Source: Escherichia phage vB_EcoM-UFV13 | Strand: one strand, 5' to 3' | Sequence record: NC_031103.1 | DNA length: 64,000 nucleotides | Shown here: positions 29,414-50,726 of the stretch, piece by piece | Position numbering within the stretch: position 1 is the first letter of the stretch | Layout: the number at the start of each line of letters is the position of its first letter | Position numbers and translations under genes: made by a program | The notes under the pieces: generated by a model | Seen by the model: only the letters and a program-made list of their open reading frames with translations | The model's database searches: none | What the model was told of the DNA's origin: nothing

Positions 29414-30373
29414 TCACTTCCACTGCATTTCACATGCTAACTGAATGAAAAGATAAGCTAAATGCAATTCAGTATTAGCTGCAATACCATGATACTGATT
29501 ATTTTCGCCGACAATTTCGTACATACGAATAATACTCTGTGGAGTTACACGTGAATAGATTTCTTCGGCAAGTTTACCCACGAACCACGAATAATCGGCT
29601 GCATATTTTGGTGCTAAAGCTCTGAGTTGTTTAACATCTTTATTTTTGAGAGACTCAAGAACATCATCAATAGCACCACGATCGTTAGTAACCAGTGATA
29701 AAATACCAGCATCCAAAACACCTTTAGATGAATAACTATCGAGCTCGCCAATAGTTTTACGAAAATCAGGAAAATTCTTTTTAACCAAAGCTGCTACAAC
29801 TTTCATATCAGCTATAGCAATTCCTTCATGCTTGCAGATTTCAGTCAATCGACGAATCATCTGCTTCATCATTTCAATTTTATCTTCATCGGTCGGTTGA
29901 CCGAACGTAATAACTCGACAGCGTGACTGAAGTGGTTTAATAATACCATCAATATTGTTAGCAGTAATAATAATACTACAGTTTGAACTATAAGCTTCCA
30001 TAAAGGAACGAAGATGTCGCTGAGATTCTGCTAATCCTGAGCGGTCAAATTCATCAATAACGATTACTTTTTGACGACCATCAAATGAAGCTGCACTTGC
30101 AAAATTAGTTAAAGGACCACGAACGAAATCAATTTTACAGTCTGATCCATTTACAAACATCATATCAGCATTTACATCATGACACAATGCTTTTGCTACA
30201 GTTGTTTTACCTGTTCCTGGAGAAGGAGAATGAAGAATAATATGTGGAATCTTACCTTTACTTGTAATAGATTTAAAGGTTTCTTTATCAAAGGCGGGAA
30301 GAATACATTCATCGATAGTAGATGGACGATATTTCTGTTCAAGAATGTGTTCTTTTTCATTTACGGTAATCAT
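29414..30373 (-). CDS. 44: clamp loader ATPase gp44 (AAA+)
   Basis: ATG at 30373 gives 319 aa MITVNEKEH...; Walker [11 protein letters not shown]. Confidence 0.9.
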
Positions 30374-30407
30374 AATTTCCTCATTCAAGTTTTAGTGTAA
30401 ATTATAA

Positions 30408-30421
30408 AGGGCCGAAGCCCT
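30408..30421 (-). terminator. CUUCGG-type RNA hairpin between 45 and 44
   Basis: agggc-cgaa-gccct. Confidence 0.55.
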
Positions 30422-30424
30422 CTA

Positions 30425-31111
30425 TTAAAAATCGTGGGTAGAATCAGCTTCAAGGGCTACTACATAATTCGCGTGTTCACCTTCAAATTTAGCAGCACCT
30501 TGTTTACCTTTTGCCCAGAGCAAAAGTTTATAATTTCCTGGTTGCATTTTCATATTTGCCATATTGATAATGAAATTAAATGTATTTTCACCATCATAAT
30601 CACCAAGAGTCAAAGAATATTTAACACGGGTCAGAGCAGAATCTTCTACTTTATTAAAACCGTTAATTACGATTTTACCTTCTTTTACCGTGATAGCAAT
30701 TGTATCAATCTGCAGACCACGAGATACACGCAACAGTTGTTGAAGGTCTTCAGCTTTAATTTCAGTAACAACAGATGCTACCGGGAATGGAATTGGTTTA
30801 TTAGGAGCAACTACTGTACTCGGATCGGCTGCTGGCCAAAAAATTGTTGAACGGGCATCAGCAATTTTAATATTTCCATCTTCTGACTGGGAAATTTCTG
30901 CATCATCATTAACTAGAGACAGAATACCAAGAAAACCGTTCAAATCGTAAATTGCTACATCAAAATCAATAGTGTCAGAAATATTTGCTTCCGCATAAGT
31001 TGTACCATTAACCGCACGAGTCATAATAAATTGACCGGATTTAAGCATAATACCGGAGTTAATAGTAGCGAAATTTTTAAGCAGAGCAGTAGTATCTTTA
31101 GACAGTTTCAT
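30425..31111 (-). CDS. 45: sliding clamp gp45
   Basis: 228 aa; near-identical to T4 gp45 as recalled. Confidence 0.95.
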   Translation of the reverse strand: MKLSKDTTALLKNFATINSGIMLKSGQFIMTRAVNGTTYAEANISDTIDFDVAIYDLNGFLGILSLVNDDAEISQSEDGNIKIADARSTIFWPAADPSTVVAPNKPIPFPVASVVTEIKAEDLQQLLRVSRGLQIDTIAITVKEGKIVINGFNKVEDSALTRVKYSLTLGDYDGENTFNFIINMANMKMQPGNYKLLLWAKGKQGAAKFEGEHANYVVALEADSTHDF

Positions 31112-31140
31112 GTAATTTCCTTCAATTCAAATGAGATTTA

Positions 31141-31166
31141 ATTTTATAACTAATTTAATAAAGCAA
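31141..31166 (-). promoter_or_regulatory. middle (MotA-box) promoter upstream of gene 45
   Basis: TTGCTTTA then 12 nt then TAAAAT. Confidence 0.5.
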
Positions 31167-31556
31167 TTAACGATTAAAATCAGCCGCAATTGTTTCCGCA
31201 ACAATTTGAGCAGCAACAATTAGACGTTCATCTGCATTACCACAATAATCATCTTCAAGGCGTTCACCACATGAAGTCATAATAAATTTAGCACCGGCGT
31301 TTAGGGATTCTGTAGTATGTTTGCGCATTAGTTCAATCCATTTATTACTTACTTCACGATCGATAGCTTCATAATACGCATGACGAGCAGGTGCAGATTT
31401 AATTTTGTTCTGAATAACTTCCATTGCGTTATCAGAAAGAGATAAAACCCATGCTCGACGAATTTTATTTTGGTTTTGTGGATTTGATTCAGAACGCACG
31501 TGTTTTGGCTGAATATCTTTTACGTCAACAGTATAATTCACAGTAATTTTAGTCAT
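31167..31556 (-). CDS. rpbA: RNA polymerase-binding protein RpbA
   Basis: 129 aa; size and position between 45 and 46 as in T4. Confidence 0.6.
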
Positions 31557-31565
31557 AATACACCT

Positions 31566-31754
31566 TTAGTCATAATAATCAGTAACAGTCCAAGCTTCAT
31601 TTCTATTGGACATTATTTTTGTATATTCTGCTTTAAATGCATTCCTAAGCATAGATTCAGTAACTATATGCTCTTCATTAGAAAAATTATTTCTCAGAAT
31701 ATATCGTTTTATTTCAGGAAAAGTTAATAAATGCTGTCCAGTTGAATATTCCAT
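31566..31754 (-). CDS. hypothetical small protein
   Basis: 62-aa ORF. Confidence 0.45.
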   Translation of the reverse strand: MEYSTGQHLLTFPEIKRYILRNNFSNEEHIVTESMLRNAFKAEYTKIMSNRNEAWTVTDYYD

Positions 31755-31809
31755 GTTTTTCCTCCATAGAGATTATACTCTAATAAATTAAAGCATAATC
31801 TCTTATAAA

Positions 31810-33492
31810 TTAAACCATTACAGTAAATCGACCAACTTTCTTCATTTGAAGGTGCTGACCATATGCTTGTGGGTCATGGTCTCTATGCGAAATAACAAAA
31901 ACATTAGTATTTTTTAAACTATCTAAAATAGTTGAAATAGCTTTTACACCTTCAACGTCGGTCGCTGAATCAAAAACTTCATCAAGAATTAGTGTGTTTA
32001 TTTTAACACCTGAAACTTTTTCAGCAATATCACGCCAAGTAAATAAAAGAGCAATATCAATTCGCGCTTTTTCACCTTGACTGAATGAAGCATAACTAAA
32101 ATCTTCACGACCACGGGATTTAATTGTCTCATTAAATTCTTCATCTAATGTAAACACATAATCCGCTTCCATTATTTTAAGATAATGGTTAATCTGCTTA
32201 TTAAATAATGGAATGTACTTTTTAATAATAGCACCTTTAATACCAGAATCTTTGAGCATATCAGTCAAAATTCCTCGGTGGTATTTTTCCATTACTAAAT
32301 TAGTTTTTGTCTTAACAATTTTATCAAGTTCTTCTTGAAGCAGTGCTATTTCATCAGCATGGTCAATAAACTCAGAAGATGCTTTTTCTATAGCTGCTTT
32401 AACTTTTTTAGCTTTATCTACCGTCGTGATTAGAGATTGCTTTTTATTGCGAATATCATTTGCCAACGACTGCTGGGTTTTAATATTATCTCGGTATTCA
32501 TCAACAAGAACTTTTAAATTATCACGATGTGTTGAAAGCTGGTCAAACGAATGCGTACATTCAGAAACTTTATCTTTAATTTTAGAAACAACTTTATCAC
32601 CAGAACTTAATTGTGACAAACAGGTTGGACATAATCCACCTTCGTGATACATATTAATGACTTTATTATACGAGTCAATTTTTGATTTAATTAAAACTGC
32701 TTCTTGACCGATTTTATTAAATGCATCAGTCGGGTCTTCATCCAAAACAATATTAACTAATCTTTCATTAGCTTCTTCTATTTCCGATTTTAGCGTTCTA
32801 GCTTCTTTTGCCAAATCATCATACATATTTTGTAGACGAGTAAGGTTGTCACCCGTTAATTTTTTCTGGCGTTCAACGTTATCATTATATATTTTAATTT
32901 GTTGGATAATACTATCTTTTTTAACATCAAGCACTTGGTTCTGCGAATTTAATTCACGTATTAGTGCTTTATTAAGCTTATCCATTTCAGCTAATGTTCC
33001 TACCTCAAGCAGGTCTTCCACAAGCTTTCTTCGCGCAGGGGTCGACAAACCCATGAAAGGGGTATACCCTGCTGTACCAAGGACAACAATCTGCTTGAAA
33101 CTGGCATATGACATTCCGATAAGCTGTTCAAATTCTGCTTGGAAATCTTTACTGCTGGCAGATTCATTAAGACGTGTACCGTTAACGGTGATTTCGAAAA
33201 CGTTTGGTTTTTGTCCTCTTTTGATATAGTACTTTTTCTCATCATATTCCATCCACAGTTCAACTAAAAGTTCTTTCTTATTTGTGCTGTTTATTAATTG
33301 ACCTTTCTTTACATCACGGAATGGCTTGCCAAAAAGCCCAAATGTGATGGCTTCTAACATAGTAGACTTACCACCGCCATTTCGTCCAGTAATAAGAGTT
33401 TTTTGAACCTTATCTAATTGAATGTCAATAGGATTTCCACCCACTGACATTATATTTTGATACCTAACTCGGTTTAGTTTAAAATTCTTCAC
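31810..33492 (-). CDS. 46: recombination nuclease subunit gp46 (Rad50/SbcC-like ATPase)
   Basis: 560 aa; Walker A GRNGGGKST; coiled-coil middle; C-terminal signature. Confidence 0.9.
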   Translation of the reverse strand: MKNFKLNRVRYQNIMSVGGNPIDIQLDKVQKTLITGRNGGGKSTMLEAITFGLFGKPFRDVKKGQLINSTNKKELLVELWMEYDEKKYYIKRGQKPNVFEITVNGTRLNESASSKDFQAEFEQLIGMSYASFKQIVVLGTAGYTPFMGLSTPARRKLVEDLLEVGTLAEMDKLNKALIRELNSQNQVLDVKKDSIIQQIKIYNDNVERQKKLTGDNLTRLQNMYDDLAKEARTLKSEIEEANERLVNIVLDEDPTDAFNKIGQEAVLIKSKIDSYNKVINMYHEGGLCPTCLSQLSSGDKVVSKIKDKVSECTHSFDQLSTHRDNLKVLVDEYRDNIKTQQSLANDIRNKKQSLITTVDKAKKVKAAIEKASSEFIDHADEIALLQEELDKIVKTKTNLVMEKYHRGILTDMLKDSGIKGAIIKKYIPLFNKQINHYLKIMEADYVFTLDEEFNETIKSRGREDFSYASFSQGEKARIDIALLFTWRDIAEKVSGVKINTLILDEVFDSATDVEGVKAISTILDSLKNTNVFVISHRDHDPQAYGQHLQMKKVGRFTVMV

Positions 33493-33752
33493 AAAAGATT
33501 CCTTTTAATGTATCTTTTAGACCATTCTATCATATCATCATAATCTAAAAAGTATTCATCAAATTCAGCCATGCAAACAACACCTTGTGCTGCTTTTGAT
33601 GTGATATAAATTATTCCAACATATCTAGAATCTTCTTCGGTGTAATCAATATTTGCTATGAATTCATCATTAATGTCAAATGTCGAAAACTTCACAGTAT
33701 GCATCCTTAATACAAGATACAGCCATATCTTGTAATGATTTAGGTGTGTCAT
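33489..33752 (-). CDS. hypothetical small protein
   Basis: Track ORF; true start may be internal (MHTVKF, about 33704). Confidence 0.4.
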   Translation of the reverse strand: MTHLNHYKIWLYLVLRMHTVKFSTFDINDEFIANIDYTEEDSRYVGIIYITSKAAQGVVCMAEFDEYFLDYDDMIEWSKRYIKRNLL

Positions 33753-33939
33753 TATCTAAAATGTTGAAGTTAAAAGATACAGCCCAGTCAGTGCAGACTG
33801 TAACCTTTTTAATACAATTATCTTCAACCTCTAACGGTTCAAACCAATATTCAATAATTTCTTTATGACCAATATCATCTTTTACTTCGCATTCAAAATG
33901 CTGACTCATCATAACATTTTTAAATTCATCAAAAGTCAT
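33676..33939 (-). CDS. hypothetical small protein
   Basis: 87-aa ORF. Confidence 0.45.
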   Translation of the reverse strand: MTFDEFKNVMMSQHFECEVKDDIGHKEIIEYWFEPLEVEDNCIKKVTVCTDWAVSFNFNILDNDTPKSLQDMAVSCIKDAYCEVFDI

Positions 33940-34955
33940 TGTGTTGCCTCTACATATAACTGATTTGAATATTGAATAAGTGCTTCACGGTCAGAATCAG
34001 TGATGTCTGGAATTGCATTAATGTATTCTTCCATCAATGTCTGAAGCGATTGAACTTCAACTTCTTCACTGTCATCTGACTCGACAGAGTTATCAATTTT
34101 TGACACAACTCGTAATGAATGCACAACTTTTTCTAGTTCAGATTCGAACTTCGTCAGATTTTTGTCTACTTCAGTTACTATAACACGTACTGATAGATTT
34201 GTAAAATCTTTATAGTCAATTTTTCCTTTAAATGGATAATGAATTCTACGATGCCAGGTAGTATTGTTTGGAATAAATTCCATTCGTTCTGTTTCTGTAT
34301 CAAACATCCAGAACCCACGAGGGTCATTCTCGTCACCTGCAGTTAGTGTCCATGGTGTCCCAATATATCTGACGTTAGCAGCCTCAGAGATAGTATGGAA
34401 GTGACCAGACCACACCTCTTTATAAGTCTTAAGGAAATCAGGTTCAAGACCATGAGATTTCATTCCTTTATAAAAATAAAATCCATTCAGTTCCCAGTGA
34501 CCAACACAAAAAGAAGCAGATGAAGTTTTGATGTGTTCAAGAATTTCACCAGTATTTTCTTCACACATCCAAGGAATTAAATCAATCAAACATCCGTCAA
34601 AATCTACTGTAGTAGGCTTATCATATACTTTAACATTGGGATATTTAGCCAAAAGCTCAGTAGAGGCATTTGGAGTTAAAGTATTTTTAAAGTGCATATC
34701 ATGGTTTCCTACAACAGTATGTAGGGTAATACCAGCATCATCAAGCATTTGAACTATTTCACGAGCAAACTCCATAGTTTTATGCGTGATTGCTTTTCGC
34801 ACATCAAAAATATCGCCGTATTGAATCCAGGTAGTAATTCCATTTTTCTTAGAATATTCTATTGCTTGTTTAATTCCATCCAACTGAATGGATTGAACCC
34901 ACTCATCATCGGCTTTAACGCCTAAATGCCAATCACCTAAATTTAAAATTTTCAT
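33936..34955 (-). CDS. 47: recombination nuclease subunit gp47 (Mre11/SbcD-like)
   Basis: 339 aa; phosphoesterase motifs GDWH, GNHD. Confidence 0.9.
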   Translation of the reverse strand: MKILNLGDWHLGVKADDEWVQSIQLDGIKQAIEYSKKNGITTWIQYGDIFDVRKAITHKTMEFAREIVQMLDDAGITLHTVVGNHDMHFKNTLTPNASTELLAKYPNVKVYDKPTTVDFDGCLIDLIPWMCEENTGEILEHIKTSSASFCVGHWELNGFYFYKGMKSHGLEPDFLKTYKEVWSGHFHTISEAANVRYIGTPWTLTAGDENDPRGFWMFDTETERMEFIPNNTTWHRRIHYPFKGKIDYKDFTNLSVRVIVTEVDKNLTKFESELEKVVHSLRVVSKIDNSVESDDSEEVEVQSLQTLMEEYINAIPDITDSDREALIQYSNQLYVEATQ

Positions 34956-35092
34956 ATATCAAGAACCGTCATTGAAATGCAAAATAAAATTATTGAAATA
35001 AATCCATCTGGAGTGCTAAAGAACCCAATCCAACATGCTCTAGTGAATAGATAAAATGCAAGAAAAAGTATCACATATCCAAGAAATATCAT
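34952..35092 (-). CDS. small hydrophobic peptide
   Basis: 46 aa hand-translated; ATGA overlap with gene 47 start. Confidence 0.35.
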   Translation of the reverse strand: MIFLGYVILFLAFYLFTRACWIGFFSTPDGFISIILFCISMTVLDI

Positions 35093-35115
35093 TATATCAA
35101 ACTCCGTATAAAGCT

Positions 35116-35133
35116 AAAGGGCCGAAGCCCTTT
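35116..35133 (-). terminator. CUUCGG-type RNA hairpin at alpha-gt 3' end
   Basis: aaagggc-cgaa-gcccttt overlapping stop codon. Confidence 0.55.
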
Positions 35134-36334
35134 ATTTTGTAATAATGTCAAACTGTTCTTTAAAGCAGAAGCTTGAATCTTGGTGCTGATACAAAAATTC
35201 ATATGCTTTTTCTCGCTCACGGTCATAAAGAGCTCGGTCAGATGACAGTTCTTTAATACGTTCAAATGTTGATTCCATGTCATTTTCATCAAACCAAATG
35301 ATACCGCTATCATGCGAGGTCAAAGGAGTATTATCAACACGGAATTTTAAATTTTCGCCAGTAGATTTCCAAAATACCGGAATTGTTCCACATGCACCAA
35401 GCTCGAGATGAGTATATTCTAAAGAACGTTGTAGATATTTTTTGTCCAACTTACTCAGCTGATAACCAAATCCGGATTTACTCATACGTTCAAGCATTTC
35501 GCTATTTACATAACGGTCAAGAATTTGCGTTGGCAAATTAGGAGCAATTTTAATTTGGTCTACTTGATGAAGACGATAATACTCGTATGGAATTCCTTTT
35601 TCTTTAATGGGAATGAACGCTGGAGAACGTTCCAGACCTTCCATAATAGTACTTAGTCCTGCAGGTTTAAGATGTTTTTCATGAAAATCAAACATCTGAT
35701 AAAAACCTTTCCATGTAGTCGTACGACCAATCCAACGGTTGATATTCATGTTAATTTCAGAAACATCTTTCCAGTATGTTGACCGAACCTTCGCAATATC
35801 CATAGGAGGCTGAAAGTTATATACTGTCGGTGCTTCTTCAATATCATCAAACAGAGAAACAGTTTCTGGATACCATTCTTTCATCAGAACTTTATTAAAA
35901 TCACCATTATCAGAATGGCTAAAAATAACATCAGCTCGACGAACAGTTTCTTCTAATCCCAAATTTCGACGCAAAGAAAGAGAAGAATGGTCATGTTGAT
36001 AAACTACAACACGAACAGAAGGTTTAATGTTATCAATAATTTTTTTATAGTTATTAATAGTGTCTTCTTCAACCGAAGTAGCAGGAACTGAATTGATAAT
36101 TAGAATATCACAATCATTTACCAGCTTAAGTGTTTTATCGTATTCTTTTGCCAATAAAACCGGAATTGAAAATGATTTATAATCATGCGCACAATTACGA
36201 GTAAATGATTTATCTTTAGCATAAACCAAAGTTACTTCATGACCATTTTTAATAAACCAATCACGTTGCTCAAGAGAAAATTTAGTTACACCACAACCTT
36301 CAAGACCTCGAGCCATAAAAATACATACTTTCAT
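35132..36334 (-). CDS. agt: DNA alpha-glucosyltransferase
   Basis: 400 aa; near-identical to T4 alpha-gt as recalled. Confidence 0.9.
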   Translation of the reverse strand: MKVCIFMARGLEGCGVTKFSLEQRDWFIKNGHEVTLVYAKDKSFTRNCAHDYKSFSIPVLLAKEYDKTLKLVNDCDILIINSVPATSVEEDTINNYKKIIDNIKPSVRVVVYQHDHSSLSLRRNLGLEETVRRADVIFSHSDNGDFNKVLMKEWYPETVSLFDDIEEAPTVYNFQPPMDIAKVRSTYWKDVSEINMNINRWIGRTTTWKGFYQMFDFHEKHLKPAGLSTIMEGLERSPAFIPIKEKGIPYEYYRLHQVDQIKIAPNLPTQILDRYVNSEMLERMSKSGFGYQLSKLDKKYLQRSLEYTHLELGACGTIPVFWKSTGENLKFRVDNTPLTSHDSGIIWFDENDMESTFERIKELSSDRALYDREREKAYEFLYQHQDSSFCFKEQFDIITK

Positions 36335-36358
36335 TTAATATCCTCTTTGTTTTGGTTT

Positions 36359-36383
36359 ATTTTACCAAAAATTTATAAAGCAA
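36359..36383 (-). promoter_or_regulatory. middle (MotA-box) promoter upstream of alpha-gt
   Basis: TTGCTTTA then 11 nt then TAAAAT. Confidence 0.5.
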
Positions 36384-36386
36384 TAT

Positions 36387-36402
36387 AGGAGCCGAAGCTC
36401 CT
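36387..36402 (-). terminator. CUUCGG-type RNA hairpin
   Basis: aggagc-cgaa-gctcct. Confidence 0.5.
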
Positions 36403-36571
36403 ATCCGCATAATACGCCATACAGAGGCTCGTTAGAACTTTTAAATTTTATGCGCTTATATGTTATAGTTCCTTCTGCTTTAGCTTTATCATGAGACTCT
36501 TTAAAGAGTCTCATCATTTCTACTTTAGAGGAACGAATTTTATTATCTATTTCACAAGTCTGGGCGTTCAT
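36401..36571 (-). CDS. small protein containing a 24-bp perfect palindrome
   Basis: 56 aa hand-translated; stop overlaps CUUCGG hairpin. Confidence 0.35.
   Translation of the reverse strand: MNAQTCEIDNKIRSSKVEMMRLFKESHDKAKAEGTITYKRIKFKSSNEPLYGVLCG
36491..36514. repeat. 24-bp perfect palindrome ATGAGACTCTTTAAAGAGTCTCAT
   Basis: 12+12 perfect inverted repeat, no spacer. Confidence 0.7.
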
Positions 36572-36574
36572 CTT

Positions 36575-36781
36575 TCACAGTTGCCACCATTTTTTGACTT
36601 GATAGGAATCAACCCACACTTTCATATTAGGGTCTGCTCTTACAATAGGAGGATTAACTTCTTTAATTGAACTATCATGGTATTCTTTTTCAGAAATTTT
36701 CACACAAAGATGACCATTCAAAGATTCAGTAAATCCTGCATTAATTTTAAGACGCTTGAATTTTACGTGTGTAAGCATCAA
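36575..36781 (-). CDS. hypothetical small protein
   Basis: 68-aa ORF. Confidence 0.45.
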   Translation of the reverse strand: MMLTHVKFKRLKINAGFTESLNGHLCVKISEKEYHDSSIKEVNPPIVRADPNMKVWVDSYQVKKWWQL

Positions 36782-37064
36782 TCATATCCTCAATCTGCGA
36801 TCTAGTAGTCTTCCAAAGAATACTGATGAGTTCATCGTTATATGGCTGTTTTAGAATATCCCGACTTTTCTTGATAGCATATTCGTATTGAGCAAAATTA
36901 TTATTTTCAGCTGCAATCTGAGCGTGCTTATAAAGACGATTCAGTTCGCGTTTGTTTTTAGACAATAACTTATTTGCTTTTCTTTCTGCTTCAAGACGGT
37001 TCTTTTCTTCAATAGAAGAAATAAGCTTTTCCACTTCATCATTAATTTCGGGTTTATCAGTCAT
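36747..37064 (-). CDS. hypothetical protein
   Basis: 105-aa ORF. Confidence 0.5.
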   Translation of the reverse strand: MTDKPEINDEVEKLISSIEEKNRLEAERKANKLLSKNKRELNRLYKHAQIAAENNNFAQYEYAIKKSRDILKQPYNDELISILWKTTRSQIEDMIDAYTRKIQAS

Positions 37065-37065
37065 A

Positions 37066-37284
37066 TTATTTCTCTAATATAAAATAAAAATCATCATCTG
37101 TTAAATGATACCGATAGTTTAATTCTACACCATTAGATTTAAAAGCGGTATCATACGGATTTTCTGGATCAATATCAATGTCAAGAGCTAAAACTTCCCT
37201 GAGATACATTTTAAGTAAATAGGGAATAGCTTCAACTTCAGGTATTTCTTCCAAGAATCCGGAGAGGTTAATCGTTAGCCTCAT
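37066..37284 (-). CDS. hypothetical small protein
   Basis: 72-aa ORF. Confidence 0.45.
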
Positions 37285-37831
37285 ATAAAAAATCCAAACT
37301 AGGAGAATCGTCTACAACACTTTTCTTTTCAGCCCCCGGTGTTCTATAGGTTGATTCTTCGTAATGCGTCATTTTATCGTAGATGTCTTGAATAAAAGTT
37401 TCATCTACTAACGCAACCATATCGTCGTCACGACTGTCATAGACATTGTGAACGAAGTAACTATATTTCTTTGCAACTTCCTTACGTTCTTTTTTAATAC
37501 GCTGGACGAATGCATTAAAACAAGCTTGAGTTATATATGCATGTGGGTTTTTATATTTCGTTTCATCAAAATTGTGAAGCCCCTTAATAGAAGCTTCTAT
37601 ACCATCTGCAATCATTTCTTGTTTCCAAGACTGGGTGTATCCTGAAAAGTTGAAACGTTTAGATAAGCCTTCTGCAATAAGCATAATGGCTAATCCGATA
37701 GTATCATTCTGACGAACTACTTTATTTGGGTCTTTATTATTTGCTAATTCTGTTTTCCAATCAATAATAGCTTGTAAAAGCTCTTTATTGTTTACGTAAT
37801 TATATTTAGGCTTAGTTTCTGACATTTTCAC
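37268..37831 (-). CDS. 55: late sigma factor gp55
   Basis: Track start is GTG at 37831; ATG at 37825 gives 185 aa MSETKPKY... as T4 gp55. Confidence 0.85.
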
Positions 37832-37903
37832 CTCTTAGCTCAATTCATAGATCTATTATATCATAATATTTGAAGATCTATCTTAAAGCATAGAGGATAT
37901 CAG

Positions 37904-38173
37904 TTATCTAAGTAAACAGTATGCTTGGAACACTTTTTCCATCATCTTTTTAAATTCATGAATATCTATGTAATGACTAGTTAAATCAGCATGATATAAA
38001 AAGTCTAAAAACTTTTCATGTGTACTAACATATTCACTTTCATTTAATTCAGAAACATGGCTTTCCCAATATCCAACACCAGTCTTATTTGGGAAAAATG
38101 AAATTTTCATGTATTGGTCAACATAGAAAATACCATAATTTTCAATAGTAATAGAAATATTAATAAATTTCAT
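37904..38173 (-). CDS. hypothetical protein
   Basis: 89-aa ORF. Confidence 0.45.
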   Translation of the reverse strand: MKFINISITIENYGIFYVDQYMKISFFPNKTGVGYWESHVSELNESEYVSTHEKFLDFLYHADLTSHYIDIHEFKKMMEKVFQAYCLLR

Positions 38174-38385
38174 ACATTCATCAACTTAGCCGCTTCAAGA
38201 GCTGCATCTAGTGAATCAAATTGATCAACATATTCAATCAATTCGCCGTAATTAGCGTATAACCACCATTGGCTAAATTCATACTCAAGGATGAATCCGT
38301 TTCCTTCAATTTGAGTTAAACCAATGCCATTTGTATTTACTTCATACCCAGCAAGACGTAAATCGTTAATAAGAGCTTCGTTCAT
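38170..38385 (-). CDS. hypothetical small protein
   Basis: 71-aa ORF. Confidence 0.45.
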   Translation of the reverse strand: MNEALINDLRLAGYEVNTNGIGLTQIEGNGFILEYEFSQWWLYANYGELIEYVDQFDSLDAALEAAKLMNV

Positions 38386-38387
38386 AA

Positions 38388-38714
38388 TTATACCTTAGTA
38401 ATTTTCAGGTCTGCAAATTTTTTCTTGCGTTGATTTTTCATGCGACGAATAGTCTTATCGGAAATTTCATGCTTTTGATAAGCTTTAGATTCTACACCAA
38501 AAGCTTTAACATCAAATTCTGACAAGATATATTGAACTAACAATTCACGGACAGTATTGCGTCCAATCTTCTGATCATTCTGTTTCATCGTCTGATGAAG
38601 CTCTTTTTCCCATTTATCCAAACTTTGAGGAGTTACAATATCGCCTTTTTCTAGCAAAGAAACTACTTTATCATATGCATAAGAATTGATGGCGTTTTTA
38701 ATTTGAATAGTCAT
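38388..38714 (-). CDS. hypothetical protein
   Basis: 108-aa ORF. Confidence 0.5.
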   Translation of the reverse strand: MTIQIKNAINSYAYDKVVSLLEKGDIVTPQSLDKWEKELHQTMKQNDQKIGRNTVRELLVQYILSEFDVKAFGVESKAYQKHEISDKTIRRMKNQRKKKFADLKITKV

Positions 38715-38752
38715 ACATTATCCTCAATTGCGTTAAAATTTTATTATCCAAA

Positions 38753-38768
38753 AAGGGCCGAAGCCCTT
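38753..38768 (-). terminator. CUUCGG-type RNA hairpin
   Basis: agggc-cgaa-gccct. Confidence 0.55.
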
Positions 38769-38967
38769 AGCTAAACTGTTTGGCACCCTTCCAGCCTTCG
38801 TACATCATTGCGGCTGATATTAATATTGCTCCTGAGCATTTTGAATATTTGTGATTCCAAAACCAGTTTAGAAAAACTTCGTCATCAATACCTTGGGCTA
38901 TCATATTTTCAAAGAACTGACGACGAGCTTCAGCAATTCGTTGCGATAATTTAGATTCAGGATTCAT
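38767..38967 (-). CDS. hypothetical small protein
   Basis: 66-aa ORF; preceded by CUUCGG hairpin. Confidence 0.45.
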   Translation of the reverse strand: MNPESKLSQRIAEARRQFFENMIAQGIDDEVFLNWFWNHKYSKCSGAILISAAMMYEGWKGAKQFS

Positions 38968-39099
38968 TTAAATTTTCCAGTTACCATTTTCATCAATAAA
39001 TTTAATCCAGTCATTTACTGACCACTTAGTTGTATCGCCTTTTGGAGTAACATTTAAAGTGTATAACCCCTGCTTAAAAAGCATTCGTTTGATATTCAT
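38968..39099 (-). CDS. hypothetical small protein
   Basis: Internal ATG of track ORF 38968..39183; 43 aa. Confidence 0.3.
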   Translation of the reverse strand: MNIKRMLFKQGLYTLNVTPKGDTTKWSVNDWIKFIDENGNWKI

Positions 39100-39106
39100 A
39101 TTTTCC

Positions 39107-39400
39107 TCAGCTGTAACGATAACACTCGTTTGATTTGCGCTTAGCAACTCGTTGAGATGTATTGTAATCAAAATCATCGTCAATGTAAACTGATTTTTTC
39201 AACTTTCTTACTTCACCACGTAATTGACGATTTAGCTCATCTTTAACTTCTGAATCAATGCCTTTCATTCTACGCCATTTATCAGAGCGAAAAATGTTTT
39301 CAACCATATCTTTATGACTTACACCATCAGGAGCTTTACGCTTTCCGAAATAGTCATAATCACGAACTTTTAAGTCTTTACGACGATACGTTTTACCCAT
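39107..39400 (-). CDS. hypothetical basic protein
   Basis: Internal ATG at 39400 (MGKTYRRK...). Confidence 0.45.
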   Translation of the reverse strand: MGKTYRRKDLKVRDYDYFGKRKAPDGVSHKDMVENIFRSDKWRRMKGIDSEVKDELNRQLRGEVRKLKKSVYIDDDFDYNTSQRVAKRKSNECYRYS

Positions 39401-39575
39401 GGAGTTTGATTTCCTTAGCAACTGAACTAAATACAGCACGGTCACAAATCATCTGTTTATGTAACTTGAGTATAAGATAATAAACTTCAAAACCGTTTAC
39501 ATAAGTAACACGAACAACATTACCATTAATAAAATAATATTGTCCCTTTTTAATTTCTTTATCAACCACAACCAT
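39393..39575 (-). CDS. hypothetical small protein
   Basis: 60 aa; early promoter upstream. Confidence 0.45.
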   Translation of the reverse strand: MVVVDKEIKKGQYYFINGNVVRVTYVNGFEVYYLILKLHKQMICDRAVFSSVAKEIKLHG

Positions 39576-39605
39576 ATCAAATCCTCAAAGGCAATTCATA
39601 TGTTA

Positions 39606-39635
39606 ATAATACCACAGTTTGAACTTCTTGTAAAC
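39606..39635 (-). promoter_or_regulatory. early promoter
   Basis: GTTTAC-18-TATTAT. Confidence 0.5.
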
Positions 39636-39733
39636 AACTTTGTGAAAAATATTTTAGGGAATGACAAGAAGGGAACGATAGCTTAGAATGGTAATATACA
39701 GAATGCGAGAAAGAAAGGCCCAGAGGGCCCGTC

Positions 39734-40042
39734 TTAATCTTCTATGATATCTCTATCATATCCAAGTGAAATGAGAGTTTCTTTGAAGTGTTTAATGTTC
39801 TTTTGTCTAGAATCATTAATGAAAATGACCGGATAACGAATGTTAAGAGATGTGAATCCAGCGCGTTTAGCAAGAGATACAATCAGTGGACGATCATACT
39901 CAATCTTACCATTATTTGTAAGAACTTTATAGAAAGTAAAAGGAGCATTGAGCTCCTTTAGAAGTTTTGTAACTGATTGACATCCAGGACAACGACCTAC
40001 TTCATCTGGAATTCCATAGACTTCAATCTTATTTTGTTTCAC
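39734..40042 (-). CDS. nrdH: glutaredoxin-like protein NrdH
   Basis: 102 aa; CPGC redox motif. Confidence 0.75.
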   Translation of the reverse strand: MKQNKIEVYGIPDEVGRCPGCQSVTKLLKELNAPFTFYKVLTNNGKIEYDRPLIVSLAKRAGFTSLNIRYPVIFINDSRQKNIKHFKETLISLGYDRDIIED

Positions 40043-50625: not shown

Positions 50626-50726
50626 CANTACCTCCATTNACCAGTTTAATTCTANTCATCTTTTTNATGGCAGTCCATATAATCTATTTCTGAACTGCCT
50701 TTTTGTCATAGAAGTCCTCTTATGAA

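Follow-up and report, generated by a model that had tools for sequence, protein, structure and literature searches.

The DNA analyzed here, referred to as the window, is a 64-kb stretch from a Tequatrovirus (T4/T2/T6-like) phage whose best record match over 8 kb is 98.3%. The minus strand of the region of interest carries, in order, gene 55 (37268 to 37831), a-gt.5, a-gt.4 (DUF2654), a-gt.3, a-gt.2, and a-gt (35132 to 36334). A preliminary description, made from the window sequence, had placed a 56-amino-acid open reading frame (ORF) between alpha-gt and gene 55. This was correct; the ORF is a-gt.2 (36401 to 36571, minus strand), which encodes a 56-aa protein of unknown function assigned to Pfam DUF5486 and phrog_2140. 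A literature search for a-gt.2 found no paper. The AlphaFold model of the protein predicts a long helix (residues 3 to 33) followed by a beta hairpin, with a mean pLDDT of 75 and a pLDDT of about 90 across residues 11 to 30. The window protein has Leu22 where its relatives have Arg. It also lacks Tyr10 as the result of a 3-bp deletion at 36544/36545 (EIDYNK to EIDNK), which leaves 56 aa instead of 57 when compared with ESh24, RB32, T6, and every other Tequatrovirus record fetched; the Tyr-less form is also found in three database proteins (P0008, P0015, and P0019).

Within a-gt.2 is the perfect 24-bp palindrome ATGAGACTCTTTAAAGAGTCTCAT (36491 to 36514). The window sequence confirmed the earlier reading of this site as a 12+12 inverted repeat with zero spacer. 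The palindrome lies midway through a-gt.2, is not near a promoter, and has no regulatory position. On the minus strand it encodes Met20-Arg-Leu-Phe-Lys-Glu-Ser-His27 of a-gt.2. Because of the palindromic symmetry MRLFKESH can also be read from the plus strand, and this gives rise to a spurious 59-aa antisense ORF that starts at 36491. That plus-strand ORF (36491 to 36670) was considered as a gene and rejected; it lies antisense to both a-gt.2 and a-gt.3, and related records do not annotate it.

Frequency of comparable palindromes in the window

The 24-mer occurs once in the window, even when up to three mismatches are allowed, and the search for further copies that the preliminary description had proposed therefore yielded no second site. 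Half-site repeats searched for in the window were no commoner than expected by chance. Among zero-spacer palindromes in the 64-kb window, ATGAGACTCTTTAAAGAGTCTCAT is alone in having at least 11 of 12 positions paired; nine more have 10 of 12. From base composition, 0.011 perfect 12+12 palindromes are expected per 64 kb, and a perfect 12+12 palindrome appeared in 1 of 300 second-order Markov simulations. The chance of "well below 1 percent" that had been put forward for such a site is roughly right (0.3 to 1%), but slightly generous, and it also takes no account of the many windows scanned. At 11 or more pairs, the level of the ancestral form, 0.33 to 0.36 palindromes are expected per window, and 28% of the simulations attain the observed count. 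The perfect form is uncommon for a single window, whereas the one-mismatch form is not unusual.

Conservation of the peptide and loss of the symmetry

About 500 phage records contain the region, with 95 to 99% identity. A word-11 search of the site returned 633 records, of which 291 have the majority allele, 104 have one difference, and 238 have more than one. The majority allele (Arg22, C at 36507; sense strand ATGAGACGCTTTAAAGAGTCTCAT) pairs at 11 of 12 positions, as is the case in ESh24, RB32, and T4_ev240. Exact 32-mer searches recovered 29 records of the T4 type, which pairs at 10 of 12 positions (as in the T4-type phage RB55), and 8 records of a His-to-Tyr type. The functional reading in the preliminary description had been made to depend on the palindrome being retained in those close relatives that have the ORF. 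It is not retained: 291 records have 11/12 pairs and T4 has 10/12, versus 19 records in which the palindrome is perfect, as it is in the window (12/12).

In more distant genera the ORF and the peptide are kept and the palindrome is gone. Pairing is 9/12 in the Mosigvirus EP32B (peptide MRRFKESY), 5/12 in Moon (MRRFKMSY), and 4/12 in CIP9 (MRRFKESL), in VR7, and in PWKp16. The chance level of pairing is approximately 3.3/12, and the values for Moon and CIP9 were regarded as chance level. Moon and CIP9 retain MRRFK.S, and their symmetry has been lost through synonymous codons (AGG, CGG, TTC, AAG, GAA, TCG, and TCA). The loss of symmetry while the peptide is kept indicates that selection acts on the peptide. 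The calculated energies of the RNA hairpin (in kcal/mol) are -15.8 for the window, -11.4 for the majority allele, -7.1 for T4, -6.5 for Mosigvirus, and -4.7 for Moon, the last of which cannot be told apart from the values for shuffled sequence. No compensatory changes in the hairpin were found when they were looked for across the relatives.

The codons of the peptide M-R-R-F-K-E-S-H (ATG AGA CGC TTT AAA GAG TCT CAT) pair with one another across the center: ATG with CAT, AGA with TCT, and TTT with AAA. CGC pairs with GAG at two of three positions, and the window codon CTC (Leu) in place of CGC (Arg) completes the pairing. The sense-strand change from CGC to CTC, a transversion that replaces Arg22 with Leu, is seen at plus-strand position 36507 as A in place of C. 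The outgroups have Arg22 and therefore Leu22 is derived; they support Arg22/Glu25 as the ancestral combination.

Four states of a single mismatched pair

Alleles were named for the plus-strand bases at 36498/36507 and were counted with exact 32-mer searches of the phage collection. The counts are of database records, RefSeq/GenBank duplicates included, and not of independent events. In all four states that were found, the left 7-bp arm ATGAGAC (36491 to 36497) and its partner, the right 7-bp arm GTCTCAT (36508 to 36514), are identical. Between the arms are the central 10 bp (TCTTTAAAGA in the window; 36498 to 36507), the end bases of which are the sole mismatched pair of the ancestral form. 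The ancestral T/C state, with Arg22 and 11/12 pairs, is found in 291 records. G/A, which encodes MRLFKASH, ranks second in frequency among the alleles (54 records and the metagenome contig L061) and is an exact inversion, identical to the reverse complement of the majority 24-mer. The window type, T/A, is perfect and is represented by 19 records, including T6, PST, slur02/04/11/13, PE37, Ge15, and CAM-21. The alternative perfect state, G/C, which encodes MRRFKASH, is found in two records, sb2 and ECP2301.

Each of the two single changes that perfect the palindrome is a transversion to exactly the base that copying of the opposite arm would give. The perfecting alleles make up 21 of the 104 single-difference records, compared with 2 of the 96 possible single changes in the 32-mer. 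The perfect allele is not a sequencing error, because it is present in the independent T6 records MH550421 and AP018814. A pattern scan for the a-gt.2 site identified 6 viral loci and 10 metagenome loci, 7 of the latter in a-gt.2. The inverted form of the T4-type allele, in which inversion would have a three-base signature, was also searched for, with no match, which counts against template switching.

The states share flanking sequences. In an alignment of about 800 bp around the palindrome (30 to 34 sequences), the G/A carriers ZCEC15, slur07, NBG2, Aplg8, and L061 have no differences from the T/C contig L037 over 337 flanking bases, and across 361 bases they differ from it solely at the two paired positions. 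By our arithmetic, a double substitution of exactly this type has a probability of about 1 in 585,000 across 361 sites. The T/A phage slur02 differs from this zero-difference group at one or two sites, and three states are found on one background: T/C (L037 and L057), G/A (Aplg8 and others), and T/A (slur02). A second background has all four, with T/C in L065 and L059, G/A in sb4, T/A in YwIITB1 and Ge15, and G/C in ECP2301 and sb2. The window itself (T/A) is nearest to ESh24 (T/C). On a neighbor-joining tree of the flanks, position 36507 requires nine changes, the most of the 75 variable sites, and 36498 requires five, which is joint second, in a sample that was chosen largely by allele and in which step counts are therefore inflated. 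Other homoplastic sites on the same tree reach five steps. Among 18 sequences gathered regardless of allele, 17 were T/C and 1 was G/A.

Origin of the palindrome

It is likely that the palindrome is a by-product of the coding sequence, in which a quasi-palindrome was perfected by a single change, most likely via template switching. The T-even codons for M-R-R-F-K-E-S-H, a conserved helix motif of the small early protein a-gt.2, would have provided the ancestral 11/12 quasi-palindrome as a chance product, expected about 0.35 times per 64 kb or, by our estimate, about one time in a genome of the size of T4. The nascent strand would, during replication, fold back or switch strands at ATGAGAC/GTCTCAT, the putative switch site, and copy the opposite arm. 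A partial (intramolecular) switch would homogenize the arms and produce either the T/A state of the window or the alternative G/C state. A complete intermolecular switch would invert the central 10 bp and produce G/A, the reverse complement of the ancestral 24-mer. Both perfect forms could equally arise if the two orientations crossed over inside the central 8 bp. An inversion-type double change and both perfecting single changes on shared flanks are, taken together, a known signature of quasi-palindrome template switching. The earlier suggestion that the site is prone to forming a cruciform survives in a mutational sense, in that the natural variants at its mismatched pair are those expected from hairpin-mediated template switching, but not as a description of a functional element.

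Template switching at quasi-palindromes is an established mechanism, and similar sites have been described before. It was first inferred from mutants of T4 rIIB and yeast CYC1 (Ripley 1982; PMC7202029), and the hotspot in E. coli thyA is a quasi-palindrome-associated template-switch site (Dutra and Lovett 2006; PMC7202029). These sites resemble the a-gt.2 site in that an imperfect inverted repeat in coding sequence has a mismatch that changes to the complement of its partner, and the a-gt.2 site is found in the phage group for which template switching was first proposed from laboratory mutants. However, the a-gt.2 variants are a natural polymorphism of wild phage isolates rather than a measured mutation spectrum, the a-gt.2 repeat has no spacer, and its substitutions alter two residues of a protein. 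Arm homogenization, spacer inversion, and parallel flip-flops have been reported in Saccharomyces coding DNA (Abraham and Hazkani-Covo 2021; PMC8604942). As in a-gt.2, the Saccharomyces repeats have short perfect arms around a short center whose orientation differs between strains, with both forms seen on different backgrounds, one or two amino acid changes, and arm-perfecting variants at the same loci. The Saccharomyces arms are longer than 9 bp and the spacers have 2 to 5 substituted bases, whereas a-gt.2 has 7-bp invariant arms and a 10-bp inverted center. Only two bases change on inversion in a-gt.2 because the center is itself nearly palindromic. Another difference is that recombination in phages makes independent origins harder to prove.

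Template switching is the most likely source of the four states as judged from the sequence comparisons, with mutation plus recombination or protein selection as the alternatives. T4-like phages recombine heavily, and short conversion patches could make both perfect forms, which is a point against template switching. It is possible, although unlikely, that the perfect palindrome is a coincidence in which a point mutation changed Arg22 to Leu in a weakly constrained gene and T-even recombination spread the other states. Chance would supply an 11/12 ancestor 0.33 to 0.36 times per window, other positions of the 24-mer vary too (the T4 type, the His-to-Tyr type, and the BCPEco001 type), and the flanks have many homoplastic sites in a sample that was chosen by allele, all of which would be consistent with coincidence. 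However, coincidence would not predict that the second commonest allele (54 records) is an exact inversion that differs from L037 at two positions in 361 bases, that both perfecting alleles exist and that each is the transversion expected from templating, or that these alleles reach 21/104 of the single-difference records versus 2/96 of the possible changes. A further point against template switching is that residues 22 and 25 are three apart on a confidently predicted helix, which makes paired selection on the protein geometrically possible. Arg22/Glu25 might be an i,i+3 helix pair, with Leu22/Ala25 as an alternative pair and the DNA symmetry incidental. The two residues are within the predicted helix (residues 3 to 33; pLDDT of about 90 for residues 11 to 30), and R/E (291 records) and L/A (54 records) are far commoner than the mixed combinations L/E (19 records) and R/A (2 records). 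Nevertheless, we consider selection of this kind quite improbable. It would be a remarkable coincidence for the two codon changes to be the exact complement swap of a mismatched pair, and phages as well known as T6 are viable with a mixed state. Furthermore, distant homologues have Q22/A25 (P0025) or R22/A25 (P0027), so that Ala25 has no need of Leu22, and Leu22 is confined to close Tequatrovirus-type proteins with quasi-palindromic DNA.

The preliminary description had raised two functions for the palindrome at the DNA level, binding of a dimeric protein and recognition by a nuclease, and a site of either type, whether an operator or a target for a nuclease such as MobB, is very unlikely. Perfect dyad symmetry is statistically rare and is shared with palindromic operators and restriction-type sites, but the palindrome does not share their conserved symmetry, repetition, regulatory position, or partner protein. 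About 96% of close relatives have imperfect symmetry here, and other genera have none. It is a single copy inside an ORF, with no second full site in the window and half-sites at chance level, and the dimeric-protein binding site is therefore unsupported. To our knowledge, asymmetry is the rule in characterized phage homing sites of the HNH and GIY-YIG types. The gene mobB, for a free-standing HNH endonuclease, is located between a-gt and a-gt.2 in T4/RB55, in 215Ecol030PP, and in the contigs L039 and L042; the corresponding interval of the window (36335 to 36400) has no mobB (a-gt.1). The palindrome is approximately 100 to 150 bp from the location of mobB in T4, and thus close to the mobB insertion point in the mobB-free window, as might be expected of a MobB target, and MobB has been listed with its activity not determined and its target unknown (PMC2988022). 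However, L039 and L042, which have the RB55 mobB-type left flank, have the majority 24-mer of mobB-free phages. A 24-mer that is the same in some relatives with and without mobB argues against a MobB target. A function in RNA is extremely unlikely, either as a hairpin in the a-gt.2 mRNA that tunes translation or decay or as a plus-strand intrinsic terminator for antisense transcription. The predicted hairpin of the window is stable (-15.8 kcal/mol, z = -5.9), and in a consensus scan the plus strand gave a weak terminator-like match whose tail is CATTTCTACT. Yet the hairpin falls to background in relatives without compensatory pairs, and the U tract is poor for a terminator. An Rfam scan of 36000 to 37400 at E values up to 1 gave no match, and a search of both strands from 30000 to 40000 for the late-promoter consensus TATAAATA found none to feed a plus-strand transcript, for which the 6 kb upstream of the palindrome were covered. 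The hairpin-type terminator of the operon is, instead, a conserved UUCG hairpin at 36385 to 36404.

As a candidate regulatory site or nuclease target the palindrome has no importance, and the evidence points to an accident of coding sequence. With a coding by-product perfected by template switching as the preferred explanation, the palindrome is an ordinary element, another example of the known quasi-palindrome mutation sites, and of modest interest as a natural example. It appears to be a clean natural case of quasi-palindrome template switching, with both arm perfecting and inversion, in the form of a four-state polymorphism over hundreds of isolates. It also serves as a warning that perfect intragenic palindromes can be products of mutation and are not necessarily functional, and that clustered double substitutions in phage genes do not necessarily reflect selection or recombination. 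A more speculative possibility, which we regard as improbable, is an adaptive flip-flop in which recurrent template switching toggles two surface residues of a-gt.2 and the variants are maintained because they matter. The states Arg22/Glu25, Leu22/Ala25, and the two mixed perfect-palindrome forms may, for example, suit different hosts or defenses. If this were true, a lytic phage would have a structure-encoded source of protein variants that is locally elevated at this site.

Neighboring features

A CUUCGG hairpin had been described as next to the palindrome. The hairpin is present on the minus strand (36404 to 36385), but it is 87 bases away, close to the palindrome without adjoining it. This C(UUCG)G hairpin, ATAGGAGCTTCGGCTCCTAT, overlaps the stop codon of a-gt.2 and is separate from the palindrome. 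It is unchanged in six relatives, and related records annotate a terminator there. Hairpins of the C(UUCG)G type in T4 intercistronic regions were reportedly described by Tuerk and colleagues in 1988. The neighboring element, conserved and annotated as a terminator, is like them, whereas the palindrome has a UUAA loop, is inside coding sequence, and is unconserved. Following the hairpin on the minus strand (36345 to 36404), upstream of a-gt, are ATATTGCTTTA, 11 nt, and TAAAAT, an arrangement that resembles the T4 consensus for a MotA-dependent middle promoter.

A direct repeat, AAAGCTAAAGCA (Lys-Ala-Lys-Ala; 36476 to 36487, minus strand), directly adjoins the palindrome. Among homologues, the repeat has a 6-bp duplication in P0011 (KAKAKA) and a deletion in P0021 (KA), length variation that looks like replication slippage.

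Elsewhere in the window there are six isolated N characters (at 50628, 50639, 50655, 50666, 58093, and 58100), which are possibly ambiguous base calls or masking. Several public records, including T6 (AP018814/NC_054907), Moon, and JLBYU31, label a-gt.2 as "prohead core protein protease" or "head maturation protease", and the protease label is also found with phrog_17354. For a 56-aa DUF5486 protein, this label looks like a propagated mis-annotation.
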